DNA of 64,000 nucleotides from an uncultured Gemmatimonadales bacterium. GTDB taxonomy: Bacteria; Gemmatimonadota; Gemmatimonadetes; Gemmatimonadales; Gemmatimonadaceae. The position numbers and the translations under genes were made by a program. This document shows positions 1-61,004 of this stretch, in pieces. The stretch is taken from positions 1 to 64,000 of the forward strand of contig CAWKNZ010000009.1 in assembly GCA_963851265.1 (NCBI GenBank). The letters run 5' to 3'. Under the pieces are notes generated by a model that saw nothing but the letters and a program-made list of their open reading frames with translations, did not search any database and was not told the origin of the DNA. Within the stretch, counting starts at the first letter, position 1. Every line of letters begins with the position of its first letter.

Positions 1-2266
1 TCAAGCGCTCCCTGCACGTCCCCCGTTAGGCGCGCTATCCACTTGTCGTCCACCACCAGCGCCCGACCTCGTCCTCGCTGAGCGTCGGGTACTTCTCGTA
101 TGCCAGCCGGTCGAGCGCCGCTTCCTGCTCCCTCACCGCGCGCTTGAGCGTCGCCTCGCTCTCGGACAGCTCCAACCACCGCCGCAGCACGTCGGCCTCC
201 TCGCGCGCGTCCCGGTCGCCGCGCACCTCGCGGAGCCGCGCGCTGACCTCGGCCTTCGCCACCCGGTCGAGCGCGCCGAGGTAACCCTCCTCGCCGCCGT
301 GTTCCTCTTTCAGCTCGGCCAGGCGCGCCGTCGCCGCTTCAAGCTCGGCTTGCGTCGCGTCGAGCGCAGCCTGCTGCCTCGCAAAGTAGCGCGCGACGAC
401 GAACGGCTTCGGCACCAGATCGCAGGCCCAGCCCCTGTCACGCTTGCCCCCTTCTTGTCGTTCTCCTCGATGCGCGGCGGCGCGCCACCCAGCCGTCGGC
501 GCGATCAGATACACGTCGTCCTGCATCGTCTCGGCCCAGTAGTCCATCAGGTGCTGGTAGACGTCGTAGGCGTCGAGCAGCGGCGCCGCCGCGGAAGGCG
601 GCGAGCAGGCTCTCGGCGAGCGTCTCGATCAGCGCCTTGGGGTGGCCGCCCGGCGAAGCCCTTGAGCCGCGGCGTTGACGCCGCCTGCCACGCGTCGAAG
701 AGCGCGGTCACCGCTGCGTTGAACGCGGTGAACTCGGCGTGGCCGAAGATCGCGGCCTTGACCTCGGCCGCGGGCGACCTCGAGGCGCGCGTAGCCGGGG
801 CGGCCCGCGCGCTCGAACAGGGCGGCGCGCACGCCGGGAAGCACCTCCCAGTAGCGGCCGAGCGCGTCGAGGTCGCGGTCCGGGATGCCGCCGCGCAGGT
901 GGGCGTCGATGTCCTGCAGGTCCTCGGGCTCGGTGCTGTCGATGTAGCGCGGCAGGTTGAGGTTGTAGTCGTTCTTCGGGTCGGCGATCTCGGCGAGCGG
1001 CACCATGCGCGAGTAGCGCGGGACGTCGACCTGCCGGGTGAAGGTGTCGACGATCCGGTGGATGTCCTGCTCGCGCAGGCGGTTCTTGTTGCCGTCCTTG
1101 ATGAAGCCCTTGCGAGGCGTCGATCATGAAGATGCCCTTGCGGGCAGCGGCGTTTTCCTTGTCGAGCACGACGATGCAGGCCGGGATGCCGGTGCCGTAG
1201 AAGAGGTTGGCGGGCAGGCCGATGATGCCCTTGATGATAGCCCGTGCTGGACGAGCTGCCGGCGGATGTCCGCCTCGGCGTTGCCGCGGAACAGCACGCC
1301 GTGCGGCAGGATGCACGCGCCTTTGCCGGTGCTCTTCAGCGAGCGGAGGATGTGCAGCAGGAAGGCGTAGTCGCCGTTCTTGCGCCGGCGGCACGCCGTA
1401 CGCGAAGCGCTGGTACGGGTCGCTTCGCGGGGTCGAGGCCGTTGCTCCACGCCTTGTCCGAGAACGGCGGATTGGCGACCACGAAGTCGAACGTCTTGAG
1501 CGTGCTCGCCGTCGGTGAACTTGGGCTCGGCGAGCGTGTTGCCCTGCAGATCTCGGCCGTCGGGAAGTCGTGCAGGATCATGTTCATCCGGGCGAGCGCG
1601 GCCGTGGCGTTGTCCTTCTCCTGGCCGTAGAGCGTGATCGTGCTTGCCCGGCCTCGTCGGCGACCTTGAGCAGCAGCGAGCCGGAGCCGCAGGTCGGGTC
1701 GTAGATGGTGTGCGGCTGCGGCGTTGCGCGGCGCGATGCCGATCACTCGCCATGACGCGGCAGACCTCGGCCGGCGTGTAGAACTGCCCCTTGCTCTTGC
1801 CGGACTCGGTGGCGAAGTGCCGCATCAGGTACTCGTAGGCGTCGCCGAGGAGGTCGTCGCCCTCGGCGCGGTTGCTGCGGAAGTCCAGCGCCGGGTTTCG
1901 AAGATCGCGACCAGGTTGGTGAGCCGGTCCGACCATCTCCTTGCCCTTGCCGAGCTTGTCTGGGATCGTTGAAGTCGGCGACGTCGATCGCGGCGAGGCC
2001 GTTGGCCTCGGCGAGCGGCCGATGATTCTTGTTGATCTGGTCGCCGATCTCCTCGTTGCCCTTGAGCGCGACCATGTCGGTGAAGCTCCGCCCTCGGGGA
2101 ACGATCGAGCGGCGCGAAGTCGTCCTGTCCGGCGTACTTGTCGGAGACGTACTTCACGAACAGCAGAACGAGGACGTAGTCCTTGTACTGGCTGGCGTCC
2201 ATGCCGCCGCGCAGCTCGTCGCAGCCTCCAGAGGGAGCTGTAGAGGTCGGATTTCTTCAGGGCCAC
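1..2266 (-). pseudogene. hsdM: Type I restriction-modification methyltransferase subunit M, split by many frameshifts; continues off the left edge
   Basis: Pieces in different frames rebuild HsdM: MALKKSDLYSSLW, MDASQYKDYVLVLLFVKY, LLGDAYEYLMRHFATESGKSKGQFYTP, LYGQEKD, VVANPPFSDK, ILPHGVLFRG, IIGLPANLFYGTGIPACI, YNLNLPRYID, MDYWAETMQDDVY. Confidence 0.9.
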
Positions 2267-2633
2267 GAATCAGCTCACAGGGGTGTCGGACATCGCGCCT
2301 GGCGGCGCCTCGACGTGGGTACGGTGTTGGCTTCGACGCAGCAGTTACGGACAGCGCGTGCCGTCGAACGTAGAGCGCGAGCCATTGGCGGTCGAGTCGG
2401 TGCCCTAACGGTTCCCGGCCTGAGCACGCATCCGCGCGGAGGACACGAATGAGTCGTGCGGGCGTCGGCCGGCATGCGCTCGACGGTTCCCCCGTGGGCA
2501 GCCCCGTCGGGTGCACCGCGACGGCCGGGTGCGCGTCCTGCTACACCGATGCGGCCACGAACGTCACGTCCCCGCGGGGCTCGCGGTCAGCATGCGGACT
2601 GCCGCGCGCCCGCTGACCCGCTGTCACCGAGCG

Positions 2634-4313: not shown

Positions 4314-4340
4314 GGCGGGCCGGCAGGGGCTCGGGGCGAG

Positions 4341-7300
4341 TTAGGCGCGGGTCATGCGCGCGAGGTCGAAGTGGTAGCGGCCGAACGGGTTGATGTGCGC
4401 CCGGCCGAGCGGGGAGAGCCGCTGCAGGTCGGCGTCGGCGATCGCGGTGCCCTCGGCACGCGCGCCCTCGACGAGCTCGGCGAGCTGCGCCGTGTTCCAC
4501 GCGACGACCGCGTTGTGGAGGACGGCGAGGCAGCTGAACGTGTGGAGCTGGTCCTCGAACTCGCGGCCGCGGAGCGCGCCGCCCTTGCCGAAGCACAGAA
4601 AGCGCGACAGCTCGTGGGACGCCTCGCCCTTGTTGAGCTCCCGCCCGACGCGGCGGCGCAGGGCCTCGTCGTCGAGGTAGCGCAGGAGGAACGCCGTCTT
4701 GTAGGCGCGCCCGAGTTCCGCGAGGGCCTGGTGCACGCGGCTCTGCCGCGCGTACGACCCGAGCCGGTTCAGGACGAGCGACGGGGAGACGACCCGCGTG
4801 TGCAGGGAGGCGATCACGCGCACGACGTCGTCCCACGCGGGGCGGACGAGGTGCGGGCGGATGGTGCCGGTGAGCAGTGGCGCGAGGTGCGGGTAATGCG
4901 CGCGGCGGTCGACGCCCGGGAAGGTGTAGAGCGTCTGATCCTGGATGTCGCGGAGGCGCGGTGCGAGCTCGATGCCTAACAGCTGCGCGGTCGCCATCAC
5001 CACCTCGGTGTACCCGTGCGTGTCGGTGTAGCACGTGGCGGGGTCGAGCTCCGTCTCGTGCTCGAGGAGGCCGTCGAGGACAAACGTCGCCTCGCGCAGC
5101 CGGCACGGGATGGCCTGGTGATGGAGCTGCAGGTAGTTGTCGGCGGTGTGCGCCAGGAGCGTCACGCCGCGCGCCTGGAGGAGCGGGCTGTAGTCGGCGG
5201 CCAGCACGTTGATCGGCACATGGAAGCGCATGCCGCCGGCGGAACACGTCGCCCCGCTGACCCCAGAGCTGCGTGAGCGGCAGCCGGGCGGCGTAGTTCA
5301 CCAGGTCGACGCTCGCGGCCTTGAGCGCGTCCTCGCTGAAGTACCAGTCGGCGATCCGGCTGATGTCGCGCGCCGTGACGCCCGGCGAGGCGGCCGCCAT
5401 ACGCTGCGGCCCGAGATTACAGCCGACGGCGATCAGGGCGGCGAGGACGTTGCGGCGGTGCACGCCCGCGGGGATCCGTGCGGCCCCCCCGCCCTGGCGC
5501 CCGTGCGCGTCCCCGAAGTGGCGGAGGCAGTCGGTCGCGTTGTCGACGTCGATCAGGAGGTCGCCCAAGTCGGTGCGCGGGAGGCGGTCGTCGATCAGCT
5601 GCGTGAGCGCGACGGCGGTCTCGGACTCCGCCAACGCGGGCAGCGGGGTCAGCACGAATGTGCCCTGAGCCGCGTCGATCGTCAGCCCCGCGTTGGTCGG
5701 CACGCGCGCGTCGACCGCCGCGGTCACGGCCGCGAGGTGCGCGCCGAGGGCGGTGAGGAACACATCCGGGTCGAGCGGAAGCCCCAACGCCGCATAGTGG
5801 CGCTCGCGGTCGCGCGCCCAGGCGTCGGCGGGAATGAGGTAGTCGTCGAAGTGCGTCCAGCGCCGCGAGTGGGCGACCGTGACGTCGCCCGCCTTGATCC
5901 GCTCGTTCAGCGTGGACAGGAGCGCGAGCTCGTAATGGGGGCGCGAAATCGTCGGCGCGCCCGCGGCCGTTTCGCCGAGGACGTACGGCGTCCACCGCGG
6001 GGCGAGGAAGTCGGTCGGCGCATCCGCCGCGAGCTTGCGACCGCCGGCGCGGTTGACGCCCGCGACGTACGCGACCGCCGCGCCGAGGGCGGGGTCGCGT
6101 GCGAACTCGAACGGCGTGACGGCCAGCAGGGCGGGCGCATACTGCCGGGTGTAGCCCCACCAGGGGGCGAGAAAGCCGAGCGGCGAGCCGTCGTCGCCGG
6201 CGCGCAGGGCGCGGCACCCCGCGACCAGCTCCGTCAACTCGGCGCTCGGCCACGCGGCGAAGATGTGCCGGCGCAGGTCGGCGTCGGGAATCGCGTCGTC
6301 GATGACCAGCGTGCCGAGCCCCTCGAGCACCTCCACGGCGCGGGTACGGGCGCGCTCGGTGGCGTGCAGCAGCGCTTCGCGCCGCCGCCGCGCGTGGTGG
6401 TGCACGCGCGTGATGAGCTTGTCCTGCATCTCGATGATCGCGTCGGTCGTCTCGGCCAGGGCAGTATGGAGGAAGGCGAGCACGAGGCTGTAGCGCTTGG
6501 GCGGGGCGAAGCGCCGGAGCGACCACACGTCGTACCGGGCGCCCCCCGCCGCGAGCACGGCACGCATCGCGGGCGGGACGGCGGCGAAGGCCGGAAGCGG
6601 CACCACGCCGAGCGCGCGGAGGTCGGTCAGCCGCGTCAGCAGGGCGAGGAGGGCGGCCGGGGACTCGCGGCGCGGGAGCGTCTTGAACAGCTCCAGTCGC
6701 GAGCGTGGCGCGGCCGCGGCACGCTCCGCGCCACGCTCCGGAGCGTCCTCCGCGGGATCACGCGCCGCCGCGCGGCCGTCCGGCGCGTCCAGCGGATCTC
6801 CTAACGGAGCAGGCGACGCCGCAGCAGGCGTCGCGGCCGGGGACGGCGTGGGCGGCGCGTCCGCCGCGACGTGGAGCAGGGCGTCGAGGCAGGCGCACTG
6901 CGGCGCGCTCAACGCGTCGGTGAGCGTCGTGTACAGGTGCTGGAGCGCGGCCTCCTTCGCTGGGGCGACCAGGTCGCGCAGGGTCGTCCGGCCCGGGCGC
7001 ACGATGCGCTGCTCGCGGCACCAGCGGCAGGCGAGCGTGGTGAGGGTGGTCGTCCGCGGGACGGACGCCGCCTGCGTGCACAGGTAGTCGAACAGGCGCT
7101 GCCGGGCGGGGGCGTCGCACTTGACGAAGCCGGCGTACACGCGGATGCGCTCCGCGTGCGCCCACCGCGTCTTCTCGTCGCGCGGCGGATCGGGGCTGGT
7201 GATCGCCAACAGCCCGAGCTGCGCGGCCAGCACTTCCACGACAGGTCCGGGCAGCGCGCGGGGGTCGGGATGGAAGTGTCCCTGCCAGCGCAGCCAGCAG

Positions 7301-7604: not shown

Positions 7605-8345
7605 CTACGCGAGGCCCGCGCCGGGACCGCCTAACGCACGCACGTAGTTGTCCCCCAGCGCCCGCACGCTCGTCTCGGCGTAGATCTGCGTCGTCGCGAG
7701 CTGCAGGTGCCCGAGGAACTTCTGCACCTGGTCGAGCGGCACGTGGCCGGAGTCGAGCAGGAGCGTGGCGATCGAGTGCCGCAGCAGGTGCGGGTAGACG
7801 CGCTTGCTGATCCCCGCGGCGCGGGCGCACGCGGCGACCCGCGCCTGCACGGCACGCACCGAGTAGCGCGTGTGCCGGTTGCTCTCGAACAGGTATCCGG
7901 TGCGCCGCCCGCGGAGGTGCGTGCGCAGCTCCTGGGCGAGGCTCGGGAGCATCGGCACGTAGCGATCGCTGCCGCCCTTGGCGTGCGTGACGTGTAGTTG
8001 CGGCGGGTCCGCGTCCAGCCGGAGGTCCTCGACCTGCACGTGCACGAACTCCGCGACCCGCATGCCCGTGAAGAAGAGCGTCTTGAGCATCAGGCCGTAG
8101 GTGCTCCGCGCCTGGTAGCTCGCCCGGATGAGGCGCTCGACTTCGGCCCGGTCGAGCCGCTCGACGGTGCCTCGGCGCTGGCGCGGGGGCGCCAGCGTGA
8201 GGAGGCGCCGCGCGCGCTCGACCACGGCTTTCGTCTGGTCGTAATCGAGGTGGTGCGTGCGCCAGAGCTTCGCGGTCGCGTGCGCGACGTCGGCGAGCGC
8301 GGCCTGCCCCGGTGCAACGTGCGTCTTCGACGGATGACCACGCAT
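7605..8345 (-). CDS. Tyrosine recombinase (XerC/D-like; probable TnpI-type resolvase)
   Basis: Complete catalytic set: TGMR, AKGG, YPHLLRH, LGH, TTQIY. ATG at 8345. Confidence 0.9.
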   Translation of the reverse strand: MRGHPSKTHVAPGQAALADVAHATAKLWRTHHLDYDQTKAVVERARRLLTLAPPRQRRGTVERLDRAEVERLIRASYQARSTYGLMLKTLFFTGMRVAEFVHVQVEDLRLDADPPQLHVTHAKGGSDRYVPMLPSLAQELRTHLRGRRTGYLFESNRHTRYSVRAVQARVAACARAAGISKRVYPHLLRHSIATLLLDSGHVPLDQVQKFLGHLQLATTQIYAETSVRALGDNYVRALGGPGAGLA

Positions 8346-9652: not shown

Positions 9653-9780
9653 GTGACCGCCCTGTTCTTCGCGTGGGGCTTTCTCACGTCGCTCAACGAC
9701 ATCCTCGTGCCGCACCTGCGCGGCGTGTTCGCGCTGAGCTACGCGCAGGCCGCGCTCGTGCAGTTCACCTCCTCCGGGGC
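9653..9780 (+). pseudogene. Fragment of a FucP/GluP-type MFS sugar permease
   Basis: LFFAWGFLTSLNDILVPHLRGVFALSYAQAALVQF is the FucP-family first helices; similarity then stops. Confidence 0.75.
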
Positions 9781-10090
9781 CTTCGAGAGGTGGTTGCCTA
9801 ACGTCCGACAAGCGACCGTTGTAGAACGTCCGTCGCGCGTCGGCGTGTCAGCGACCGCCGCCACACGCGCGTGACCCGAGCTCGACGGCCGCGAGCTGCC
9901 GGCTCACCGCTGCCGGGTGTGCAACACCAGGCACGTGCGCGCTGTACGACCCCGGCGGTGCTCTGCGCAACCTACGCGGCCCCGCCGTCGACCGGCGGAC
10001 GTAACCGCGCGGCTCATCACCCCCGGCTCGACGAACGCCGTGGGTGACCGCTGCTGCGAGGACAGCAGGCGCCAGGAACGCTCCGCCTCG

Positions 10091-13226: not shown

Positions 13227-14006
13227 ATGCCTAACGAACGCCCACACACCACCCCCGCGAAGATCGCGATCGTCACCGGCGGGAGCCGGGGGCTCGGCCG
13301 TAACACCGTGCTGAGCCTCGCGCGACGCGGGGTCGACACCATCTTCACCTACCACTCCAATCGGGCAGAGGCCGATACGGTGGCCGGCCTGGTGGCGGCG
13401 GCTGGACGACGGGCAGTCGCCCTGCCGCTCGACGCCGGCGACGTCGGCGCGTTCGACGCCTTCGTGGCGCGCGTCCGCGAGGCGCTCGGCGCGCTCGGGG
13501 CCGAGCGGTTCGACTACCTCGTCAACAACGCCGGCACCTCGCACGGGAAGAGTTTCGCGCAGACCACGGAAGCGGAGCTGGACGCCCTGTACGACATCCA
13601 CCTCAAGGGCGTGTTCTTTCTGACCCAGAAGCTGCTGCCGCTCATCAACGACGGCGGGCGGATCGTGAACGTGTCGACCGGGCTCACGCGCATCGTGATG
13701 CCGAACCGCGCCGCCTACGGCGCGATCAAGGGCGCGGTCGAGGTGCTGACCCGGTACCTGGCCAAGGAGTTGGGGCCGCGCGGGATCGCGGTCAACGTCG
13801 TCGCGCCGGGCGCCATCGCCACGGACTTCAGCGGCGGCGTGGTCCGCGACAACCCCGAGGTGAACCGGGCGGTGGCCGGCATGACCGCGCTGGGGCGTGC
13901 GGGCCTGCCCGACGACATCGGCCCGATGATCGCGTCGCTACTCTCGGAGGACAACCGCTGGATCAACGCGCAGCGCATCGAAGTCTCCGGCGGGATGTCG
14001 ATCTAG
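13227..14006 (+). CDS. Short-chain dehydrogenase/reductase
   Basis: TGGSRGLG, LVNNAG, YGAIK, VAPGAIATDF. Divergent from the AraC gene. Confidence 0.93.
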   Translation: MPNERPHTTPAKIAIVTGGSRGLGRNTVLSLARRGVDTIFTYHSNRAEADTVAGLVAAAGRRAVALPLDAGDVGAFDAFVARVREALGALGAERFDYLVNNAGTSHGKSFAQTTEAELDALYDIHLKGVFFLTQKLLPLINDGGRIVNVSTGLTRIVMPNRAAYGAIKGAVEVLTRYLAKELGPRGIAVNVVAPGAIATDFSGGVVRDNPEVNRAVAGMTALGRAGLPDDIGPMIASLLSEDNRWINAQRIEVSGGMSI

Positions 14007-14359
14007 CCACGCGACGGTGCCGCGGCGGGACGTGGACGGGCACGGCCGCGTCACCGGTCCGCGGACGCGTCGGGTCGCAGCGTCGGCATCCGCGCGTATC
14101 GCGCCGGCGGCACTCCACGACGGACGCCGACGCGGCCTAACTCTCGTTCCGCGCGTCTGGGCGACAGGTCCAACGTCACCCCTCGCTCGTCGATGCGCAG
14201 TAGGCCGCATGAGCGTGGCCCGAAGCGGCAGATGTTCAGGAGATGGCTGAGTCGCTGTATCGCTCCAAATCGACGGCCGCCCGACGCGAGAGAGGTCCGG
14301 TTCTGCGGCGGCTTGTGAGATACCGTCTCGTTCGGGCGGGAGATGACGTTAGACGGCGG

Positions 14360-15359: not shown

Positions 15360-15365
15360 GGCGCC

Positions 15366-45192: not shown

Positions 45193-45999
45193 TTAGGCCG
45201 CTCGCGGGTCGCCGGCGAGGTACGTCCCCAACGCCTGCCGCACCGCGTCCGACGTACGCGCCCCGGCCACGCCGTCGACCTTCACGAACACGCCGGGGAG
45301 CGTGTTCAACCAGCGCTGCAGGGCCTCGGCCCGCTCGGCAACCGCGGGATCGGCGGGGCGTGCGGTCGCGTAGGGTACGAGCGGCGGCGCGCCCGCGGTC
45401 GGGGCCTGCTGGTCGGGGAACTCCATCACGGCGCGCTCGGCGAGCCGTCGCAGCAGCACCGCCGCCCCGCACTGCGTCGAGCGCGCCGTGGCCGACCACG
45501 TGCCGTCGGCCACGTACTTGCCGCTGTCGTACCAGTCGGAGAAGCTCCACAGGTACGGCGTGCGGACCTCGGGGTGGTACAGCCGGTAGCCGAACCCGTT
45601 GTATCCCTCGACGTGGTAGAGCGTGTCGGAGAGCCCCCACCCGCTTCCCGCGTTCAGCCCGCGGCACGCGAGCGCGTCGCCGGCGCTCGCCTCCCAGGTG
45701 AACGGCGGACTTCCGTTGGTCGGCCTCCCTTCCGGCACGTGCGCCGTGCGCGCCGTGAGCGGGTCGCCGTTGTGGAGGTGGCACCTGAAGCTGCGGTCCG
45801 ACTCCATGTTGTGGATCACCGCGACGACGTACCACGGCACGCCGGTCGTGGCCTGCACGGCCTCGTAGCGCGCGCGGTCGGCGAGGATGCCGTCGCACAC
45901 GCGGTCGACTTCCGCGGCGTGCTCCGGGCGCGGCTGACATCCGTTGAACAGCGCCTCGTACTCGTCGCCGAGGGTGGCGGTGAACGCGACGGTGGACAC
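45193..45999 (-). CDS. Lysozyme-family protein (COG5526-like) with C-terminal peptidoglycan-binding domain
   Basis: GVPWYVVAVIHNMES, HLHNGDPL, YNGFGY, PYLWS, GKYVADG, then LQRWLN..VDGVAGART. No signal peptide. Confidence 0.85.
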   Translation of the reverse strand: MSTVAFTATLGDEYEALFNGCQPRPEHAAEVDRVCDGILADRARYEAVQATTGVPWYVVAVIHNMESDRSFRCHLHNGDPLTARTAHVPEGRPTNGSPPFTWEASAGDALACRGLNAGSGWGLSDTLYHVEGYNGFGYRLYHPEVRTPYLWSFSDWYDSGKYVADGTWSATARSTQCGAAVLLRRLAERAVMEFPDQQAPTAGAPPLVPYATARPADPAVAERAEALQRWLNTLPGVFVKVDGVAGARTSDAVRQALGTYLAGDPRAA

Positions 46000-46084
46000 G
46001 GGATTGATCCTCCTTGGGGCGGGCGGGGAGGTGCGAAGCGGGCGAAGCGCGCGGAAGGCGCGGAGCTGCCGACCGCGGATGTGC

Positions 46085-47446
46085 CTAACGCAGCGTCGTC
46101 ACCTGCCAGTGCACGAGGTCCGGGTACTTCGCCGTGGCGTCCACCGGGCGCTCGGCGACCATCTGGTCGACCGCGGCCGCGAACGACTGCTGCATGGCGT
46201 CCGTCGGCGGGGCGGGCGTGCCGAGTTCGGCCGTCGGCGAGAGCGGGAGCGCGGGAGCGGGCGGGGGCGGCGCCGGGCGCGGCGTGCTTCGCGTCAGCGC
46301 CGCCGACACGCTCGCGATCCCCTGCGCCCGCCGCGCGTCGACGCTGTCGGAGTACGGCGTGCCGGGCGCGCCGAAGCGCTCGGCGAGGAATTGCAACACC
46401 GACGTGTGGTCGAGCGGCGCGTGGCAGACGCTCGCGGCGTCGACCAGCGGGGAGAGCACCACCGCCGGCACGCGCGGCCCCGTGCTCTCGAACACCCCCC
46501 CGGGCGCGCCCGCGACCGGCTGCCGCACGGGGAGCGGCGGGACGTGGTCCCAGAAGCCGCCGTGCTCGTCGTACGACACGACCATCACCGTCGTCGCCCA
46601 GCGCGCCGGATTGCCGACGAACGCGGCGTACGTGCGCCGGAGGAACGCCTCGCCGAAGCCCACCGGGAGCGGCGCGTGGTCGTCGTTCCCGTGGCGGCCT
46701 AACATCCGCTCGATCGAGTCGTACGCCGGCTCGACGACGATCACCTGCGGGAAGGTCGCGTCCGGCTCGGTGAGCACGTCGAGCGCGAGGCGGCTCGTCG
46801 GGGCGAAGTTCGGGCCGAAGACGTGGCCGAGCTGCCCCGTGTAGAGCGTGAAGAACGAGAAGCTCTCGTGGTACACGCGCCAGCGCACGCCCCGCGCCGT
46901 GAGCCAGTCGAGCACCGTCGGCCCCGCGTCGATCACCCCGGTGCCGGTGGTCGCGATCGGGCTCGCGCCGGTGAGCGCCATCGTCTTGTTGGGCTGCGTG
47001 CTCGTCGGCAGCGGCGCGAACCAGCGGTCGCACGTGCAGTAGCTGCGCGCGAAGAAGCTCGTCACCGGGACGTGGTCGGCTCGAACGAACGCCATCGGCT
47101 CGGCCTGGCTGCTCGCCACGCGGCAGCCGTCGGCCCTCGCGTACGCCTCGACGAATCCGTTCATCTCGTAGCGCCCCGTGACGTCGGACTTCGCGAGCTG
47201 CGTCGTGACGGCACCGGCTTCGTGCGGCAGGTCGCAGGAGAGCGTGCCGTCGTCGACCATCGGCCACGGGTGGTAGAGCGCGCCGTCGAGCGGATTCGCG
47301 TACCGGTCGCTCGCGAGCGGTTGCGTGAGGCCGTCGACGCCGGGTACCAGCCCGTCGAGGCTCAGGTGCCCGAGCATGTGGTCAAACGAGCGGTTCTCCA
47401 TCATCACGAGCACGACCGTCTGCACCAGCGTGCGTAGCTCCGGCAT
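46085..47446 (-). CDS. Phospholipase C/phosphoesterase family protein, no signal peptide
   Basis: VVLVMMENRSFDHMLG, CDRWFA...T.PN, DDH, SYDEHGGFWDHV, GPRVP, DHTSVL. Confidence 0.9.
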   Translation of the reverse strand: MPELRTLVQTVVLVMMENRSFDHMLGHLSLDGLVPGVDGLTQPLASDRYANPLDGALYHPWPMVDDGTLSCDLPHEAGAVTTQLAKSDVTGRYEMNGFVEAYARADGCRVASSQAEPMAFVRADHVPVTSFFARSYCTCDRWFAPLPTSTQPNKTMALTGASPIATTGTGVIDAGPTVLDWLTARGVRWRVYHESFSFFTLYTGQLGHVFGPNFAPTSRLALDVLTEPDATFPQVIVVEPAYDSIERMLGRHGNDDHAPLPVGFGEAFLRRTYAAFVGNPARWATTVMVVSYDEHGGFWDHVPPLPVRQPVAGAPGGVFESTGPRVPAVVLSPLVDAASVCHAPLDHTSVLQFLAERFGAPGTPYSDSVDARRAQGIASVSAALTRSTPRPAPPPPAPALPLSPTAELGTPAPPTDAMQQSFAAAVDQMVAERPVDATAKYPDLVHWQVTTLR

Positions 47447-49291: not shown

Positions 49292-49803
49292 CGTGTCCCC
49301 CGGGTGTGGGCTTCCGGACGCCGGACGACCTGGCGCGCCGTCGCGCCGTCCGGATGGTCCGGTACGCGAGACGGCCACCGCCTAACCAACGGCGGCGGGT
49401 CGGGGGCGCCGAGCTGCCGGCGAGTGAAACGCCTCCATAGTGCCCGGCGCTATAGTGCTACACGCGATAAATTCGTGCAAGCCGCGGAAACGCATGAGTG
49501 CGATCGCGCCGTTGCGCGACGATGTCCGGGCGACTCGGCGGCCGCTCGCGGCGTGCGTCGGGCCGAGCCGCTGCTTCCGGCGTACCCCGAGCAACCCGAA
49601 CGCGTGACAGATTCGCGACCGCCGCGCAGCCGTTCGGTGACAATGGTGGCGTACGCTGGCGCCGATGGCCTCCCGGCGGGGCGCGCCGGTCGGCCGGTTC
49701 GCCGACGTGTGCGCACGGTCCGCCCCGTTCCCCGCGTCCGCGGGCGCCGCCGTGCGGGCGGTCGCGCGCGTCGCCCCGTCCCACGCCCCGAACACCATCC
49801 CCC

Positions 49804-52800
49804 ATGCGCCTAACGTTCTGGCCGGCCGCGGCCGGCGCCCTCGCACTCGCCGCCGCGGTCCCGTCGCGCGCGCAGATCACGACCACGGCGTCGCTCGCGG
49901 GCCGCGTGACCGTCGCGGCCGGCGCCGCGCCGCTCGGCTCCGCGCAGGTCGTCGCCGTGCACCGCCCGTCGGGCACGACGTACCGCGGGACGACGCGCGC
50001 CGACGGCCGCTTCACGATCCAGGGGATGCGCGTCGGGGGGCCGTATCAGGTCACCGTGCGGGCCCTCGGGTACGCGCCGACGGTCCGCGACAACGTCACG
50101 CTCGACCTCGGGACGGAGGTCGACCTCGCGTTCGTGCTGTCCCCCGTCGCGGCGCGCCTCACGACCGTCGAGGTGCAGGCGACGACCGCCGGCGCGCTCG
50201 ACGCGGCCCGGACGGGTGCCGCCACGAACGTCGAGCGCGCGACGATCGCGACGCTGCCGACCATCAGCCGCACCATCAACGACTTCACGCGCCTGACGCC
50301 GCAGGCGTCCTCGTCGGGCAACTCGTTCGCGGGGCAGGACTCGCGGTTCAACAACACGACCGTCGACGGCGCGTTCTTCAACAACAACTTCGGCCTCGGC
50401 ACCGGCCAGCCCGGCGGGCGGACCAACGTCGCGCCGATCCCGCTCGACGCGATCGACCAGATCCAGGTGAACGTGGCGCCGTACGACGTGCGGCAGGGCT
50501 ACTTCACCGGGGCGGGCGTGAACGCGGTCACGCGCAGCGGGACCAACAACATCGAGGGCTCGCTCTACTACTTCGGGCGCAACCAGAGCTTCGTGGGTCG
50601 CGAGGCGGCCGGCCAGCGCTTCGACCCGGGCACGTTCAAGTTCGGGCAGGGCGGCGCGCGCCTCGGCGGACCGATCCTGCGCGACCGGCTGTTCTTCTTC
50701 GCCAACTACGAGGACGACCGCCAGACGCAGCCCGGCAACACCTACCTCCCGAGCGCCGCCGGCCAGACCGCGGGCGGCAACACCACGCGCGTGCTCTCGA
50801 CCGACGTGCAGCGCGTGAGCGACTTCCTGCTGCAGAAGTTCAACTACCAGACGGGCCCCGTCACGGGCTACAGCGCCGCGACGCCGTCGCGGCGGTTCCT
50901 CGGCAAGCTCGACTTCAACGCGAACGACCAGAACAAGCTCAGCCTGCGCTACATCGCGCTCAACTCGTCGTCCGACTTCCCGGCGTCGAATTCCAACTCG
51001 TTAGGCTTCGGCAACCGGCGGAGCAACCTCACGTCGCTGAGCTACGCCAACTCGGGCTACTCGATCGACGAGAACATCCGGTCGGTCGTCGGCGAGTGGA
51101 ATTCGCAGCTCGCGGGCGGGCGGTTCGCGAACAACTTCATCGGCGGGTACACGAGCAACGACGAGAGCCGCGGCTACAAGGGTGCGATCTTCCCGACGGT
51201 CGACATCCTGCAGCAGGGGACCACGTACCTGAACTTCGGGTTCGAGCCGTTCACGCCCGACAACCAGCTGCGCTACAACACGTTCCAGCTCCAGGACAAC
51301 GTGACGGCGTACGCCGGCGCGCACGAGCTCACCGTCGGCGCGCAGTTCGAGCGCTACCACTCGGAGAACGTCTTCTTCCCGGGCTCGCAGAGCGTCTACG
51401 TCTACAACTCGATCGACGACTTCTTCGCCGACGCCAACGGCTACCTGGCGAACCCCAACCGCACGACGTCGCCGGTGAGCGTGCGGCGGTTCCAGGTCCG
51501 CTACAACAACATCCCCGGGCAGGCCGAGCCGCTGCAGCCGCTTCGCGTGCAGACGTACGGCGCGTACGCGCAGGACCAGTGGCGCGCGGCCCCCGGACTG
51601 CAGCTGACGCTCGGGGTGCGCGTCGACGTGCCGAAGTTCCAGCCGACGGGCTTCATCAACCCGCAGGCCAACGCCCTCACCTTCCGCGACGACGCCGGTG
51701 CGGCGGTGCAGTACCAGACGCAGAAGCTCCCCGACGCCAACGTGCTGTTCTCGCCCCGGCTCGGCTTCAACTGGGACGTGCGCGGCGACCGCTCGACGCA
51801 GCTCCGCGGGGGCACCGGCATCTTCAGCGGGCAGCCCGCGTACGTCTGGATCTCGAACCAGATCGGGCAGAACGGCATCCAGACCGGGTTCGACCAGTTC
51901 GACAACACCACGGCGCGCCCGTTCAACCCCAACCCCGACGCGTACAAGCCCGCGACGGTGACCGGGGCGCCGGCGGCCTCGTACGAGCTCGACTTCACCG
52001 ACCCGCGCTTCAAGTTCCCGCAGCAGTGGCGGAGCAGCGTCGCGGTCGACCAGCGGCTGCCCGGTGGCGTGGTCGCGACGGGCGAGTTCCTCTACGGGCG
52101 CGACGTCAACGGCGTGTACTACATCAACGCCAACCTGCCGGCGCCGCAGGGCAAGTTCACCGGCGCGGACCAACGACCGCGCTGGCTGGCGACGACGCCG
52201 GGCGTCAACCCGACGCGCATCAACCAGAACATCACCGCGGCGTACGTGCTCAAGAACGAGAACGTCGGCCGCAACTACGACGCCGCGGTCTCGCTCGAGA
52301 AGTCGTTCCGGGCGGGCGTGTACGTGAAGGCCGGTTACAACTACGCCGTCGCGAAGAACACGATCGACCCCGGCTCGATCGCCTCGGGGAGCTGGAGCGG
52401 CAACCCGGTCGCCCGCGATCCGAACAACCCGGGGCTCGGGTACTCGCAGTACTCGCCGGGGAGCCGCGCCTTCCTCGCGGTCTCGCTCCGCCGCGAATAC
52501 TTCCGCTTCGGCGCCACGACGCTCTCGATCTTCGGGGACTACTCCACGCAGGGCAATGCGAGCTACGTGTTCGGCGGCGACCTGAACGGCGACGGCGCGG
52601 TCGGCAACGACCTGATCTACGTCCCGCGCGACCGCTCGGAGATGAACTTCGCGCCGATCGCCGCGACGGCCTCCGCGCCCGCCTTCACCGTGCAGCAGCA
52701 GCAGGACGCGTGGGAGCACTACATCACCCAGGACGCGTACCTGCGCGGACGCCGCGGCCAGTACGCCGAGCGGAACGCGGTGTTCCTGCCGATGGTGTTC

Positions 52801-53097
52801 CGCGCCGACGCGAGCCTCGCGCAGGACGTGTTCCGTCCGATCGCGGGGAAGCGCAACACGGTGCAGCTCCGCCTCGACGTGTTCAACCTCACCAACCTGC
52901 TGAGCCACAGCTGGGGCGTGGGGCAGCAGATCGTGACCACGCAGCCGCTGGTCGCCGCCGGCGCCGACGCCAACGGCGCCGCGCTCTACCGGCTCCGAGT
53001 CGTCAACAACCAGCTGCTTTCCAGCACCTACCAGCGCACGGCGGGGCTCGGCGACGTGTACCGCATGCAACTCGGGGTGCGGTACACGTTTCAGTGA
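49804..53097 (+). CDS. TonB-dependent receptor (Oar-like)
   Basis: Signal peptide, G.RVGGPY, IPLDAIDQIQV..APYDVRQG.FTGAG.NAVTRSGTN, GGPILRDRLFFF, SPRLGFNWD, C-terminal GVRYTF. Confidence 0.92.
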   Translation: MRLTFWPAAAGALALAAAVPSRAQITTTASLAGRVTVAAGAAPLGSAQVVAVHRPSGTTYRGTTRADGRFTIQGMRVGGPYQVTVRALGYAPTVRDNVTLDLGTEVDLAFVLSPVAARLTTVEVQATTAGALDAARTGAATNVERATIATLPTISRTINDFTRLTPQASSSGNSFAGQDSRFNNTTVDGAFFNNNFGLGTGQPGGRTNVAPIPLDAIDQIQVNVAPYDVRQGYFTGAGVNAVTRSGTNNIEGSLYYFGRNQSFVGREAAGQRFDPGTFKFGQGGARLGGPILRDRLFFFANYEDDRQTQPGNTYLPSAAGQTAGGNTTRVLSTDVQRVSDFLLQKFNYQTGPVTGYSAATPSRRFLGKLDFNANDQNKLSLRYIALNSSSDFPASNSNSLGFGNRRSNLTSLSYANSGYSIDENIRSVVGEWNSQLAGGRFANNFIGGYTSNDESRGYKGAIFPTVDILQQGTTYLNFGFEPFTPDNQLRYNTFQLQDNVTAYAGAHELTVGAQFERYHSENVFFPGSQSVYVYNSIDDFFADANGYLANPNRTTSPVSVRRFQVRYNNIPGQAEPLQPLRVQTYGAYAQDQWRAAPGLQLTLGVRVDVPKFQPTGFINPQANALTFRDDAGAAVQYQTQKLPDANVLFSPRLGFNWDVRGDRSTQLRGGTGIFSGQPAYVWISNQIGQNGIQTGFDQFDNTTARPFNPNPDAYKPATVTGAPAASYELDFTDPRFKFPQQWRSSVAVDQRLPGGVVATGEFLYGRDVNGVYYINANLPAPQGKFTGADQRPRWLATTPGVNPTRINQNITAAYVLKNENVGRNYDAAVSLEKSFRAGVYVKAGYNYAVAKNTIDPGSIASGSWSGNPVARDPNNPGLGYSQYSPGSRAFLAVSLRREYFRFGATTLSIFGDYSTQGNASYVFGGDLNGDGAVGNDLIYVPRDRSEMNFAPIAATASAPAFTVQQQQDAWEHYITQDAYLRGRRGQYAERNAVFLPMVFRADASLAQDVFRPIAGKRNTVQLRLDVFNLTNLLSHSWGVGQQIVTTQPLVAAGADANGAALYRLRVVNNQLLSSTYQRTAGLGDVYRMQLGVRYTFQ

Positions 53098-53121
53098 CGC
53101 GGGGGCGGAGCGGGTCCGGCG

Positions 53122-53517
53122 TTAGGCGGTGGCGCGCGTGACGCCCGCCGCCGACGGCGTCCGGCGCGGGTTCGGCGTCCTGCGCGCGCGCTCCACCACG
53201 GCGGCCTGGTACGCGTGCCCGGTCACGCGCCAGAGGTAGAGCAGGAGTGCGACCGCCTGCGGCTCGTCGTCACGCGCGCCGGCCGCGTGCGGCGCGCCCC
53301 CGCGCTGCGATTCCGCGAGGTCGCTGACGAGGGCCAGCAGGTCGTCGAATTCGAGACCGGCATCGCAGGCCGTACGGCCGAGGACCGCGGCCGCGGCTTC
53401 GAGGTCGGCGAGTGCAGGGGGTGAGAACTCGCCATGATCGGCGGCACGGGCGAGGGCGTGCGAGGTGGCCGCGGCGGGGGCGGCGAGCGGGCCGGCGACG
53501 GGCAGGTGGAAAGCCAT
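53122..53517 (-). CDS. Hypothetical helical protein
   Basis: ATG-started ORF with plausible composition; stop lies in a GCCTAAC motif. Confidence 0.5.
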   Translation of the reverse strand: MAFHLPVAGPLAAPAAATSHALARAADHGEFSPPALADLEAAAAVLGRTACDAGLEFDDLLALVSDLAESQRGGAPHAAGARDDEPQAVALLLYLWRVTGHAYQAAVVERARRTPNPRRTPSAAGVTRATA

Positions 53518-53888: not shown

Positions 53889-55457
53889 ATGCCCCGCTCC
53901 CGCAGTCGTGTCCCGACGCTGCTCACCGCCTGCGCGAGCGCCGCGCTGGCCGCCTGCGCCGACGCGCCCTCCGCGCCGGCTGCACTCGCGCGCACCGATG
54001 GCGAGACGCCGCAGGCGACCGCCGCGGCCATCACGCACGTGCTGCTGCTCAGCATCGACGGCATGCACCAGGCCGACCTCGACCGGTACGTCCGCCTCAA
54101 CCCGACGTCGGCGCTCGCGCAGCTCGCCGCATCGGGCCTGACCTACACGAGCGCGGCGACCAGCCGGCCGTCGGACTCGTTCCCCGGACTGCTGTCGATG
54201 GTCACCGGCGGATCGCCGCTGTCGACCGGCGTCTACTACGACGACTCGTACGACCGCCGGCTCGCCGCGCCGGGGTCGGACTGCTCGGTGCGCGGGACGG
54301 AGGTCGTCTACGACGAGTCGATCGACGTCAACTCCAACGCCCTCGACGCCGGCGGCGGCATCGACCCGTCCGCGCTGCCGCGCGACCCCGACCGCGGGTG
54401 CGCCCCGGTCTACCCGCACCAGTTCGTCCGCGTCAACAACATCTTCGAGGTCGCCAAGGCGGCGGGGCTCCGCACGGCGTGGTCGGACAAGCACCCGGCG
54501 TACGACATCCTCAACGGCCCGTCCGGCACGGGCGTCGACGATCTGTACAACCCCGAGATCGCCGCGGCCGGCGGCGTGTTCACCGCCGACGTGGCCGACG
54601 CGGTCCACTACGACACGCGCAAGGTCAAGGCGATCCTGAACGAGATCGACGGCCTCGACCACACCGGCGCGCGGCAGGTCGGCGTGCCGGCGCTGTTCGG
54701 GATGAACTTCCAGGCGGTGAGCGTCGGCCAGAAGACCGGCGGCTACACCGACGCGTCCGCGACGCCCACGGCCACGCTCGCCTCCGCGCTCGCGCGCACC
54801 GACGCCTCGATCGGGCAGATGCTCGCCGAGTTGACGGCGCAGGGGATCCGCTCGCAGACGTTGGTCATCGTCACGGCGAAGCACGGCCAGGCGCCGCTCA
54901 ACACGGCGATCCGCACCATCGTCAGCAACCGGCTGGTCCCGGCCATCGTCAACGGCGTCTCGGCCGGCCTCGTGGCCCAATCGACCGAGGACGACGTCGC
55001 CCTCCTCTGGCTCGCCGACCAGACGAAGACGCAGGCCGCGGTCGACGCGCTCAACGCGGCCCCCGCGAACGTCGGCGTCGCGTCGGTGCTGTCGGGCGGG
55101 GCGCTCGTCGCGCAGTTCGGGAACCCGCTCACCGACAGCCGGACCCCGGACGCGATCGTCATCACGCAGCCGGGCGTGATCTACGCGGGAGCGACGGCCA
55201 CGAAGACCGCCGAGCACGGCGGGTTCTCCGACGACGACGTGCACGTCCCGATCCTCGTGTCGGCCCCGGGGATCGCGGCCGCGCAGATCGGCAGCCCGGT
55301 CACCACCACGCAGATCGCGCCGAGCATCCTGCAGGCGCTCGGGCTGAACCCGCAGGCGCTCCAGGCCGTGCAGCGCGAGGGCACGTCGCTGCTGCCCGCG
55401 CTCGGCGCTGCGTTAGGCAGCCGCACGTCCGCCGCGTCCGCCGCGCGCGCGCGGTGA
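53889..55457 (+). CDS. Alkaline-phosphatase-superfamily phosphodiesterase/nucleotide pyrophosphatase lipoprotein
   Basis: Lipobox LAAC, VLLLSIDGMH, PSDSFPG, IVTAKHG, AEHGG, TTQIAPSIL. Confidence 0.88.
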   Translation: MPRSRSRVPTLLTACASAALAACADAPSAPAALARTDGETPQATAAAITHVLLLSIDGMHQADLDRYVRLNPTSALAQLAASGLTYTSAATSRPSDSFPGLLSMVTGGSPLSTGVYYDDSYDRRLAAPGSDCSVRGTEVVYDESIDVNSNALDAGGGIDPSALPRDPDRGCAPVYPHQFVRVNNIFEVAKAAGLRTAWSDKHPAYDILNGPSGTGVDDLYNPEIAAAGGVFTADVADAVHYDTRKVKAILNEIDGLDHTGARQVGVPALFGMNFQAVSVGQKTGGYTDASATPTATLASALARTDASIGQMLAELTAQGIRSQTLVIVTAKHGQAPLNTAIRTIVSNRLVPAIVNGVSAGLVAQSTEDDVALLWLADQTKTQAAVDALNAAPANVGVASVLSGGALVAQFGNPLTDSRTPDAIVITQPGVIYAGATATKTAEHGGFSDDDVHVPILVSAPGIAAAQIGSPVTTTQIAPSILQALGLNPQALQAVQREGTSLLPALGAALGSRTSAASAARAR

Positions 55458-55513: not shown

Positions 55514-56170
55514 ATGCGTCACTCTTTCGTCCGACACGTCGCCGGCCTCACCGCGACTCGTCTCGGCGCCGTGGTCGGTGCCGCCTTCGCCGGTGCCGCC
55601 GTTCTGGGCGCCGCACGTCCCGCCGCCGCGCAGGCGTCGAGCCAGTGCGCCGCCGTCGCGGGCAATCTCGTCGCGAACTGCGGCTTCGAGTCCGGCGGGT
55701 TCGACGGCTACACGCTCGCCGGCAACACCGCGAACAGTGGCGTCGACGCGTTCTCCGCGCACAGCGGCGGCTACGGCGCGTACGTGGGCAACCGCGGTGC
55801 CGCGCAGACGATCACCCAGACGCTCGCCACGACCGCGGGCGGGCGCTACACGTTCAGCTTCTTCCTGCTGAGCGAGGAGGCGCTCGGCGGCACGGCGTTC
55901 TTCCGCGCGTTCCTCGGCGGGCAGCAGGTGCTCGACCTCGAGAGCCAGGCGCCGCTCGCGTACACGCGCTATAGCTTCACTACGACGGCGACCGGCCCGG
56001 CGACCGACCTCCGGTTCGTCGTCCAGAACGACCTCTCGTTCTACGACCTCGACGACCTGAGCGTCGCGCCGGCCGCCACGACGACGCCCGAGCCCGCGGG
56101 CGTGGTGCTCGTCGGGGTCGGACTCCTCTCGCTCGCGGCGGCCGCACGCCGCCGGACGTCGCGGGCCTAA
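55514..56170 (+). CDS. PEP-CTERM protein with a CBM-like jelly-roll domain
   Basis: Signal peptide, NLVANCGFESG, ITQTLAT, LDDLSV, then TTPEP + TM helix + RRR. Confidence 0.85.
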   Translation: MRHSFVRHVAGLTATRLGAVVGAAFAGAAVLGAARPAAAQASSQCAAVAGNLVANCGFESGGFDGYTLAGNTANSGVDAFSAHSGGYGAYVGNRGAAQTITQTLATTAGGRYTFSFFLLSEEALGGTAFFRAFLGGQQVLDLESQAPLAYTRYSFTTTATGPATDLRFVVQNDLSFYDLDDLSVAPAATTTPEPAGVVLVGVGLLSLAAAARRRTSRA

Positions 56171-56192
56171 CATCCTCGGCTGAGCGCCCCTC

Positions 56193-57611
56193 ATGCGTCA
56201 TCACGACCGCGCCGCCGCCGCGGCGGTCTCGCGCCGGGAGTTCCTCGCCGGCTCGGCCCTCGCGGCCGCCGCCGTTTCGTTAGGCTGCACGCGCACCCCG
56301 GAAGGGGTCCTCGCGCCCTCGGTGGGGGCGGCGGCCGCCGCCCGGGCGCGGTCCGCGGCCCTGGCGCTGCCGGCGCCCGCGCAGGCGGGCATCGACCACG
56401 TCGTCGTGGTGATGATGGAGAACCGCTCCTTCGACCACCTGCTCGGCTGGGTGCCCGGGGCGGACGGCCGCCAGGCCGGGCTCGCGTACGCCGACAAGGC
56501 AGGCGCGGTCCACGCCACGCACGCGCTCGCCCCCGACTTCCAGGGCTGCGGGCACCCCGACCCCGACCACTCGTACGACGGCGCGCGCGTCGCGTACGAC
56601 GGCGGCCGCTGCGACGGGTGGCTGCGGGCCGGGTCGAACGACAACTTCTCCATCGGCTACTATCAGCAGCAGGACCTCGCGTTCCTCGGCCGCGCGGTGC
56701 CCGACTGGGCGACCTCCGACCGCTACTTCGCGGCGATCCTCGGGCCCACGTTCCCGAACCGGATGTACCAGCACGCGGCGCAGACCGACCGGACGGGCGA
56801 CACGTTCGCGATCTCGAAGCTGCCGACGATCTGGGACCGGCTCGCGGCGCGCGGCCTCACGGGACGGTACTACTACACCGACCTGCCCTTCGTCGCGCTC
56901 TGGGGCTTCAAGTACCTATCCATCGCGCGCCCCGCCGGCGACTTCTTCGCGGCGTGCGCGTCGGGTAACCTGCCCCAGGTCTCGTTCCTCGACCAGAGCT
57001 TCGTCGGCGAGTTCACCGGGACCGGCAGCGACGATCATCCGCACGCCGACGTGCGCGCGGGCGAGCACTTCCTGAACACCGTCTATCAGGCGGTGACGCA
57101 GGGGCCGGCGTGGCAGCGCACGCTCCTCGTGATCAACTTCGACGAGTGGGGCGGGTTCTTCGACCACGTGCCGCCGCCCGTCGCGCCGGTGCCGGCCGCG
57201 GACCGCGCGGCCGGCTTCACGGACGGTCTTCGCGGCTTCCGCACGCCGCTCGTCGTCGTCTCGCCGTACGCGCGGCGCGGGTACGTCGGCCACGACGTGC
57301 TGGACCACACGTCGGTGCTGCGCTTCATCGAATGGCGCTGGAATCTGGACCCGCTCACGGTGCGCGACGCCGGCGCGACCAACTTGGCCACGCTACTCGA
57401 CTTCGCAAACCCGAACGCGCACGCGCCGCAGTACACGGTGCCGAACGTCACCGGGAAGGTCTGCTTCGACCTGCCGTTCCTCGCGCGGACGGCCGAAGCG
57501 GGCGGGCCGCCGGCCGACGTGGGCGCATCGGTCGCCGGCGTGCGGGGGGCGGAGCAGCGGGCGGCGTTCCGCGCGCTCGCCGAGTCGCACGGGTTCGCGA
57601 CCGGCGGGTGA
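56193..57611 (+). CDS. Tat-exported phospholipase C/phosphoesterase
   Basis: SRREFL signal, HVVVVMMENRSFDH, GPTFPNR, DDHP, FDEWGGFFDHV, DHTSVLRFIE. Confidence 0.92.
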   Translation: MRHHDRAAAAAVSRREFLAGSALAAAAVSLGCTRTPEGVLAPSVGAAAAARARSAALALPAPAQAGIDHVVVVMMENRSFDHLLGWVPGADGRQAGLAYADKAGAVHATHALAPDFQGCGHPDPDHSYDGARVAYDGGRCDGWLRAGSNDNFSIGYYQQQDLAFLGRAVPDWATSDRYFAAILGPTFPNRMYQHAAQTDRTGDTFAISKLPTIWDRLAARGLTGRYYYTDLPFVALWGFKYLSIARPAGDFFAACASGNLPQVSFLDQSFVGEFTGTGSDDHPHADVRAGEHFLNTVYQAVTQGPAWQRTLLVINFDEWGGFFDHVPPPVAPVPAADRAAGFTDGLRGFRTPLVVVSPYARRGYVGHDVLDHTSVLRFIEWRWNLDPLTVRDAGATNLATLLDFANPNAHAPQYTVPNVTGKVCFDLPFLARTAEAGGPPADVGASVAGVRGAEQRAAFRALAESHGFATGG

Positions 57612-60646: not shown

Positions 60647-61004
60647 GTCAGCGACGACCGCGTGCGCGCGCGGAAACGCGAACGCGTGACCGTCGGCCCC
60701 ATCGTTACGATGGCGGTCCGATCGCCGAACGCGTGACGGAACCGCGGAGGGCTGGCGTGCCGCCCGGGGTGCCTAACGTTTCCGCGGCGCGTGCCGGCCG
60801 CGAGGCCGACCGGCGGGACGGCGCTGGGGGGCCGCGCTCCCGCCGCCGTAGCGCAATCGTGACGCGGCGGCCGGCGCGCGGCGGCCGCCGCCGCGTATGG
60901 TTTGTCGGCCCGGCACATCTTCGTGCGGCACGGGGCCAGGTGGCTGCGCGATCACCCCGATCCGCGGCGCCGGTCGCACGCCATCCTCGGAACGGGAAAG
61001 ACTC

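Follow-up and report, generated by a model that had tools for sequence, protein, structure and literature searches.

GCCTAAC, a genome-wide DNA word of Gemmatimonadales with a spacing rule and a local GC halo: a possible uptake or recombination tag

To our knowledge, sequence-specific uptake of DNA has been proven in two proteobacterial families, and the highly iterated palindrome HIP1 is a candidate for a further system. Inverted pairs that form terminators are a feature of the DNA uptake sequence (DUS) of Neisseria and the uptake signal sequence (USS) of the Pasteurellaceae. Minor pilins are described as the known or predicted receptors of DUS and USS (PMC8897410, PMC12616744). In Haemophilus influenzae, short fragments give symmetric uptake peaks at the USS, and a pair of USS within 100 bp brings no further gain (PMC7811141). 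Here we analyze the word GCCTAAC in a stretch of 64,000 nucleotides (the window) at the start of contig C9 (CAWKNZ010000009.1) of an uncultured Gemmatimonadales bacterium. The source genome, termed G000, comprises 4.6 Mb in 12 contigs with 73% GC, in which our own gene calls give 3795 genes. A placement in Gemmatimonadales is probable from its 16S sequence, judged by eye, and from the presence of the word in named Gemmatirosa records. A first-pass annotation of the window had proposed that the word is a frame-independent, non-palindromic, genome-wide tag acting at the DNA level, and that description has been borne out.

The window contains 30 copies, 19 on the plus and 11 on the minus strand, all exactly where they had been placed. 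The window has 72% GC rather than the 74% assumed before, and 100 dinucleotide shuffles of it gave a mean of 2.16 copies and a maximum of 6, so the number is well above chance as claimed. In the complete genome there are 1762 copies, divided 877/885 between the strands, where order-2 and order-3 Markov models expect 96 and 127 (a 14–18-fold excess), and GCCTAAC is the highest-ranked 7-mer under the order-2 model. The excess is large at orders 2 and 3, but models of order 4 and 5 absorb the motif, with ratios of observed to expected (O/E) of 1.7 and 1.0, because its own 5- and 6-mers occur mostly within it (GCCTAA is found 1794 times, 1762 of them in the motif).

A codon-preserving shuffle upholds the excess. 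The 1287 copies lying wholly within genes compare with 42–77 in 10 synonymous shuffles, and 275 copies in intergenic DNA compare with 26 expected. Copies within genes are read as TTA-GGC (992), CCT-AAC (200), CTA-AC (72) and GTT-AGG (23); a further 124 supply a TAA stop, 72 lie in the TAG-stop frame and 279 are classed as intergenic. The excess is thus present in all permitted frames as well as between genes. The TTA codon also occurs 1287 times in G000, 992 of these inside the motif. It provides 17% of leucine codons in the context G-xxx-GGC, against 0.2% in C-xxx-GGC, and ≤0.6% in C-, A- and T-xxx-GGC and in G-xxx-GGG. Motif density rises from 0.13 to 0.55 per kb with the GC content of third codon positions, and is highest in the most GC-rich genes by this measure. 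Thousands of copies are kept in some soil bacteria even at the cost of rare codons. The motif is not an assembly artefact, since it is abundant in fragmented assemblies and in named finished plasmid records, and since site 49380 of the window is present on a contig from soil. That site is unchanged in one contig of the public soil run X1, possibly the source sample itself.

The eighth position is G in 79% and A in 14% of copies genome-wide, and G in 22 of the 30 copies in the window. GCCCAAC is raised approximately threefold in the Leu-Gly frame, and in the flanks A/T is raised solely six bases to each side of the center (O/E 1.8 and 2.9). There are lineage dialects: ACCTAAC and GCATAAC are raised in genome G012. 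A graded consensus with dialects suggests a site read by a binding protein and not a restriction site.

Copies are conserved at synonymous positions. We compared G000 with its relative G001 over 363 orthologue pairs (360 kb aligned), finding 53 shared sites, 129 only in G001 and 47 only in G000. At positions with unchanged amino acids, motif codons were retained in 52 of 77 cases, compared with 425 of 3461 for other rare A/T-ending codons (P = 2e-28). The comparison with G303, a more distant genome, gave only 3 shared sites and 84 and 47 private ones, so that individual sites come and go but the density is kept. Gains compensating nearby losses were not significant (19 observed against 15.7 ± 2.6 permuted).

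The copies are also spaced by a rule. Pairs 50–300 bp apart are depleted to O/E = 0.35 in G000, in any orientation, while 80 of 130 words of like count used as controls gave 1.09 ± 0.11, with a minimum of 0.85. Spacing is random beyond about 400 bp. The same dip is found in samples of G303, G001 plus G004, and G012, and in the named plasmids of Gemmatirosa kalamazoonensis KBS708.

Around each copy A/T at synonymous positions is about halved. At four-fold degenerate sites A/T is 3.1% at 30–60 bp from a copy, 4.9% at 300–400 bp and 8% beyond 5 kb. The dip persists within genes (−0.0144 ± 0.0013; four control words gave a slight dip at most), and a within-gene fit has an amplitude of 0.46 and a decay of 309 bp (likelihood ratio 393), with flanking sites additive. 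This GC halo is symmetric, with A and T both lowered on both strands. Its value is 0.711 for the motif compared with 0.993 ± 0.021 for 60 control words, and other rare codons used as anchors give 0.99–1.10. With position in the gene corrected for, the halo is 0.69 for copies at stop codons and 0.67 for intergenic copies, and is weakest (0.85) for the two minor in-gene frames. In the window, synonymous A/T is 63/1368 near, 196/3783 at middle distance and 492/8124 far from copies. Transitions are affected most, C-to-T and G-to-A lying at 0.43 and 0.54 of the far level, with AGG versus CGG at 0.90, and G–C swaps are flat around copies. This excludes a general drop in mutation rate.

The halo mostly follows lineage-specific copies. 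Near G000-only sites the values are 0.63 and 0.61 in G000 and 1.27 and 1.47 in G001; near G001-only sites they are 0.69 and 0.88 in G001 and 0.91 and 0.95 in G000. The pair G000 and G004 gives a clear contrast in one direction (0.80 vs 1.02) but a weak one in the other, with 0.73 in G000 and 0.84 in G004 near G000-only sites. The halo is clear in G001, G004 and G239, and moderate in G210 and G120.

The distribution of the motif is patchy across the order, within families and even within one genus. All five genomes of the source genus are rich, with 0.38–0.60 copies per kb, and G012 reaches 1.5 per kb. Among 301 genomes of the phylum the 8-mer has at least 450 copies in 13, from two families, and most have fewer than 50; four unpublished genomes, each with a low count, are part of these figures, but no claim is built on them. 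Genus g48 is divided, with about 4000 copies each in G239 and G296 but 66 in G292. On a one-gene tree the rich genomes lie scattered. KBS708 is rich, with 307 copies against 7 expected in eight 50-kb stretches from two named plasmid records, where 129 of 130 TTA codons lie inside the motif; named records and our genome handles may overlap and are not treated as independent. Density is equal on secondary replicons. In small samples (7–80 kb) of the motif-poor G005, G007, G009, G014, G024 and G292 no other abundant word was found, and a phage check of two unrelated low-GC contigs gave 0 copies.

The strands are not polarized, as had been supposed. Contig C2, divided at a dif-like site, has an apparent replichore skew that vanishes once gene strand is controlled: GTTAGGC lies on the coding strand in 251 of 341 cases in leading and 152 of 216 in lagging genes, and the intergenic copies divide 39:34. 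By eye, 17 samples of the G303 chromosome showed no polarity. Around the dif-like site the density is below average and does not rise towards it. The idea of a XerD half-site was rejected, as the arm of this dif-like site (C2:1.369 Mb) is unrelated. A 45-kb region of C1 (182876–227962) is free of the motif (Poisson probability 5e-5). It spans gidA, parA, parB and mnmE (named by eye) and has raised synonymous A/T (O/E 1.32); a parS-like site was looked for there and none was found. General exclusion from the parAB region was also rejected, given normal density around parS-like sites in G303 and low density throughout in G120. In intergenic DNA the density differs with gene orientation, at 1.12 per kb for convergent and 0.29 for divergent neighbors.

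The 30 copies of GCCTAAC in the window are as follows.
25–31, minus strand: CTA-ACG, in the frameshifted tail of hsdM
4340–4346, minus: TAA stop of the Tn3 transposase piece 4341–5231
4974–4980, plus: TTA-GGC, Tn3 transposase
7629–7635, plus: TTA-GGC, tyrosine recombinase 7605–8345 (Pfam)
9796–9802, plus: CCT-AAC, weakly called open reading frame 9653–9874
13229–13235, plus: overlaps the start ATG-CCT-AAC of gene 13227–14006
14135–14141, plus: intergenic
16558–16564, plus: TTA-GGC, minus-strand gene 16309–18126
19800–19806, plus: intergenic
24216–24222, plus: CCT-AAC, gene 23218–24546
25854–25860, plus: CTA-ACN frame, gene 24686–27979
26686–26692, plus: CCT-AAC, gene 24686–27979
31148–31154, minus: TTA-GGC, gene 30576–32927
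32574–32580, minus: GTT-AGG frame, gene 30576–32927
34961–34967, plus: CCT-AAC, prepilin-type gene 34212–35204 (Pfam)
36430–36436, plus: intergenic
36963–36969, plus: TAA closing an open frame not called as a gene
39257–39263, minus: TTA-GGC, cyanophycin synthetase cphA (Pfam)
41689–41695, minus: CCT-AAC, amidohydrolase 40813–41961 (Pfam)
45192–45198, minus: TAA stop of gene 45193–45999
46083–46089, plus: complement supplies the TAG stop of gene 46085–47446
46697–46703, plus: TTA-GGC, gene 46085–47446
49380–49386, plus: intergenic
49808–49814, plus: CTA-ACN frame, start of gene 49804–53097
51000–51006, minus: TTA-GGC, gene 49804–53097
53121–53127, minus: TAA stop of gene 53122–53517
55412–55418, minus: TTA-GGC, gene 53889–55457
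56165–56171, plus: TAA stop of gene 55571–56170, in a rare inverted pair with 56279
56279–56285, minus: TTA-GGC, gene 56193–57611
60771–60777, plus: intergenic

The frames assigned by the first-pass annotation are largely correct. TTA-GGC in cphA (39257), tnpA (4974) and gene 49804–53097 (51000) and CCT-AAC at 13229 and 41689 all stand, while CTA-ACG in hsdM (site 25) is present only within the frameshifted tail. Pfam matches agree with the cphA, amidohydrolase and Tn3 transposase identities; SDR and TonB receptor are labels of the first-pass annotation. Five of six stop codons attributed to the motif end called genes (four TAA, and one TAG at 46085), and the sixth, at 36968, ends an uncalled open frame. 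Five of six one-mismatch variants were located, the exception being 37122, with none in the 8 bases to either side; words with one mismatch number 93 in the window, and the variants listed earlier are not of the enriched kinds. The type I hsdM (35–2266) is split into several frames at the end of the contig, and may be an assembly error or a pseudogene. Positions 33371–36397 carry a cluster of four minor-pilin-like genes, of which the PilW-like one is without a close orthologue in G001, G003 and G004. The inverted pair at 56165–56285, 114 bp apart, spans a stop and the next start and folds end to end. It lies in coding DNA and is probably not an attC site of an integron.

Taken together, these properties require a reader that is sequence specific, an action that saturates over about 300 bp whatever the orientation, and an effect on neighboring DNA directed towards GC. 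Our preferred explanation, whose chances of being correct we judge to be even, is that GCCTAAC followed by G in preference to A is an uptake or recombination tag that molecular drive has spread and whose footprint is GC-biased conversion. A protein recognizing the word as a mark of self would raise the uptake of fragments and/or their recombination with the chromosome during natural transformation. Biased uptake with homologous recombination would drive copies in wherever coding permits, as Leu-Gly (TTA-GGC), as Pro-Asn or in stop codons. One copy would suffice on a short fragment, and a second within about 300 bp would gain little and remain scarce. DNA beside a copy would more often be in heteroduplex, and repair of transition mismatches in favor of GC would leave a symmetric halo of low synonymous A/T. 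Biased uptake and recombination would explain excess, conservation, turnover and spacing at once, and the halo too if heteroduplex repair favors G:C.

Other observations are consistent with such a tag. G000 has a competence set of ComEC, a ComEA-like protein, PilB/T/C and a FimT-like pilin with a GRxR-type tail; DprA and RecA were assigned by motif match only. Motif density is greater in genes shared with G000 than in unshared genes, both in samples of G001 (0.52 vs 0.33 per kb) and of G004 (0.49 vs 0.33). Substitutions shift in both directions: changes from G or C to A or T (S-to-W) are at 0.037 near copies and 0.063 far from them, and the reverse (W-to-S) changes at 45/56 near copies versus 122/185 beyond 300 bp (P = 0.047).

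A number of points weigh against the uptake tag. The W-to-S changes are parsimony counts from 110 genes with parallel changes included. Core genes show no excess in G303 (0.57 vs 0.63 per kb). Within-gene values of the halo are 0.86–1.01 in G303, G012 and the named plasmids, where it is weak in the two genomes and approximately absent in the plasmids. Inverted pairs that could act as terminators are few, with about a dozen inverted pairs within 200 bp in G000. The first-pass annotation had suggested profiling against competence and methylase genes, and of the competence genes and the Eco57I-type methylase that we profiled none tracks the motif in the 68 genomes we selected (23 rich, 9 intermediate and 36 poor). 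ComEC (66/68), ComEA-like (68/68), FimT-like (62/68) and PilW-like (59/68) proteins are as much at home in poor as in rich genomes, an alignment of 21 rich and 17 poor rows shows no FimT residue that follows the motif (best P = 0.004, uncorrected), and among the FimT-like and PilW-like pilins profiled no receptor was found. Natural tracts in H. influenzae average 6.9 kb (PMC7811141), far beyond the length of the halo, and the gene-level correlation between GC and recombination is given as positive in Neisseria and negative in H. influenzae (PMC4866539).

The first-pass annotation had offered an uptake sequence and a nucleoid-protein site side by side, and we retain both. The second is possible though somewhat unlikely: the word would be an intracellular landing site, from which a chromosomal protein shields cytosines, or recruits repair of U:G or T:G to C:G, over about 300 bp on both sides. 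Copies might then be selected because they lower the load of mutations nearby, or for a part in the nucleoid, the halo being a side effect. A halo that is symmetric, short, strongest for transitions and of the same size as the exclusion zone would fit such a protein as well as it fits the uptake tag. The footprint-like rise of A/T six bases from the center and a density that is equal on secondary replicons would also fit, and W-to-S change would be accelerated by one-way repair of T:G too. Against this reading, checks for Vsr, NucS, cytosine-5 (C5) methylase and DUF559 spanned five genomes, and none of the four was found in the rich G000, G239 and G012; uracil-DNA glycosylase is present in 68/68 genomes and does not track the motif. 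No periodicity of the halo was found, and by our own estimate selection on so small a gain in mutation rate is borderline. The exclusion of close pairs also persists where the halo is nearly absent, so the halo alone is not what is selected.

It is unlikely that the word is instead an intracellular initiator of recombination working in either orientation, replacing Chi in lineages without AddAB on incoming or broken DNA. HIP1 has been proposed to act partly in this way (10.1101/2024.09.10.611283). The one gene-level signal obtained is negative: an AddAB-type nuclease domain (E ≤1.4e-12) is rarer in rich (3/23) than in poor genomes (16/36; P = 0.02), in a comparison with a post hoc threshold that omits the 9 intermediates and uses related genomes that are not independent and assemblies that are incomplete. 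Contrasts within genera agree: in the source genus the two genomes with a hit are the least dense (0.38 and 0.44 vs 0.57–0.60 per kb), and in g48 the poor G292 has a hit while G239 and G296 are without. However, 20 of 36 poor genomes also have no strong hit, G000 has AddAB-like genes and motif together, Ku (43/68, none in the source genus) does not track the motif, and there is no candidate protein. The AddAB-like pair of G000 lies at C3:244574–249942, with no hit in three of four genus relatives. By this nuclease family many genomes of the order show neither an AddAB- nor a RecBCD-type nuclease.

A methylation-linked motif, similar to HIP1 or a Dam site, is very improbable, and the methylation-linked repair motif suggested earlier is disfavored by methylase searches and by the methylome of a rich strain. 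In its favor an Eco57I/PglX-like adenine methylase (1141 aa) adjoins an SNF2-type helicase (G000 C7:579717–585511), with matches in 67/68 genomes. Yet the methylase occurs in rich and poor genomes alike, and no column of the alignment separates them (32 rows, two with the wrong open reading frame, G003 and G012). No PF01555 methylase was found in G000 and no C5 methylase in the three rich genomes, and the graded consensus is unlike a methylase site. Real-time sequencing of single molecules (SMRT) is only weakly sensitive to 5-methylcytosine. The SMRT methylome of KBS708 contains RGATCY, ATGCAC and CCAG-N7-TCA only (PMC3974934), and thus lacks the motif although the plasmids are rich in it. The N6-methyladenine version is largely refuted. 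The methylase–helicase pair is single copy with apparently vertical inheritance, unusual for a restriction-type pair, and is a candidate order-wide epigenetic system.

A neutral bias in codons, dinucleotides or context-dependent mutation is equally improbable. High-order Markov models do absorb the motif, but the codon shuffle, the context of TTA, the conservation, the exclusion zone and the halo measured against 60 control words would all be unexpected. In G000, words of the form AGC-N(0-3)-GCT are odd under maximal-order Markov models, with AGCGCT at 0.55, AGGCGCT at 1.99 and AGCGGCGCT at 0.44.

The word is identical to the core of integron attC sites, which are bounded by RYYYAAC and GTTRRRY (PMC3053210). 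G000 has a chromosomal integron array (C10:188000–215025 plus C6:1–6100) with many toxin–antitoxin cassettes and 14 attC candidates, whose integrase is interrupted, with about 2 kb of other DNA between its two parts. The 28 ends of these candidates are GCCTAACG (16), ACCTAACG (5), GCCCAACG (4), GTCTAACG (2) and GCCTAACA (1). That 16 of 28 ends are GCCTAACG might suggest that the copies are scattered attC remnants or integrase scars, but as the source of most copies this is refuted, since 1287 of 1762 lie in genes at synonymous positions, inverted pairs are rare, the attC layout (ends 57–141 bp apart, a hairpin, a position after a cassette gene) is seen in the 14 candidates and not in the bulk of the 1762, and the integrase, over the cut-off in 43/68 genomes, rich and poor alike, does not track the motif. 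In motif-poor genomes, clusters of often paired copies resemble integron arrays. By our own arithmetic a match to RYYYAAC arises by chance about once in 500, and the identity is a lead.

That lead permits a speculative extension of the uptake tag, which we regard as rather improbable. GCCTAAC might be a third, independently evolved tag, repeatedly gained and lost, whose receptor may first have captured environmental gene cassettes by the attC core before drive multiplied the word. Each copy would then be a cis element setting GC bias locally, with a 300-bp footprint of GC-biased fixation, and this would give a site-resolved means of asking if recombination drives the GC content of bacteria.

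Most TTA codons and many stops of these genomes are set by the word, whatever its reader. A tag in an abundant soil lineage, with a cultured rich strain and a rich/poor contrast in one genus, is directly testable. Through the halo a directional bias in substitution is linked to a defined site, with a resolution of 300 bp. This bears on why bacterial genomes stay GC-rich although mutation is AT-biased, be it through gene conversion, selection or repair. Four points go beyond the earlier reading: the exclusion of close pairs, the GC halo, the patchiness among genomes and the word's identity with the attC core. Our literature search, with most subscription journals and supplements outside its scope, found, among the matches listed, no description of the word, of an uptake sequence together with competence in Gemmatimonads, or of a local GC halo around DUS or USS.

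The motif differs from a restriction–modification site in its graded consensus and in its absence from the published methylome of a rich strain. It resembles Chi and KOPS (the FtsK-orienting polar sequences) as a short, asymmetric, over-represented word with a possible role in recombination. Unlike Chi it has no replichore skew and a symmetric effect, and a strong AddAB-type hit is found in only 3 of 23 rich genomes (G000 among them); unlike KOPS it has no polarity and no rise in density towards dif. With the attC core and inverse core (GTTRRRY/RYYYAAC) it shares the identical word, and variants at attC ends overlap those tolerated in the genome; but genomic copies are single, in genes and without a hairpin, GTCTAAC is not raised genome-wide and the integrase does not track. 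HIP1 (GCGATCGC) is likewise very abundant, conserved, mostly genic and linked by proposal to transformation (10.1101/2024.09.10.611283, PMC13756078), whereas GCCTAAC is no palindrome, has no matching methylase or methylation and no halo periodicity, and has an A/T-rich core in a GC-rich genome.

The closest systems in their working are DUS with ComP in Neisseria and USS with PpdA (ComN, predicted) in Pasteurellaceae. Like them, GCCTAAC is non-palindromic, lies on both strands at 0.4–1.5 per kb, and has a graded consensus with dialects, redundant close pairs and competence machinery in its hosts (PMC7811141, PMC8897410, PMC12616744). Unlike them, it is a candidate tag, an unrelated word of 7–8 bases in another phylum, patchy within families and one genus, without terminator pairs, and surrounded by a local GC halo that our search did not find for DUS or USS. 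The motif is real and apparently undescribed, and its exclusion zone and GC halo are the two features that distinguish it.

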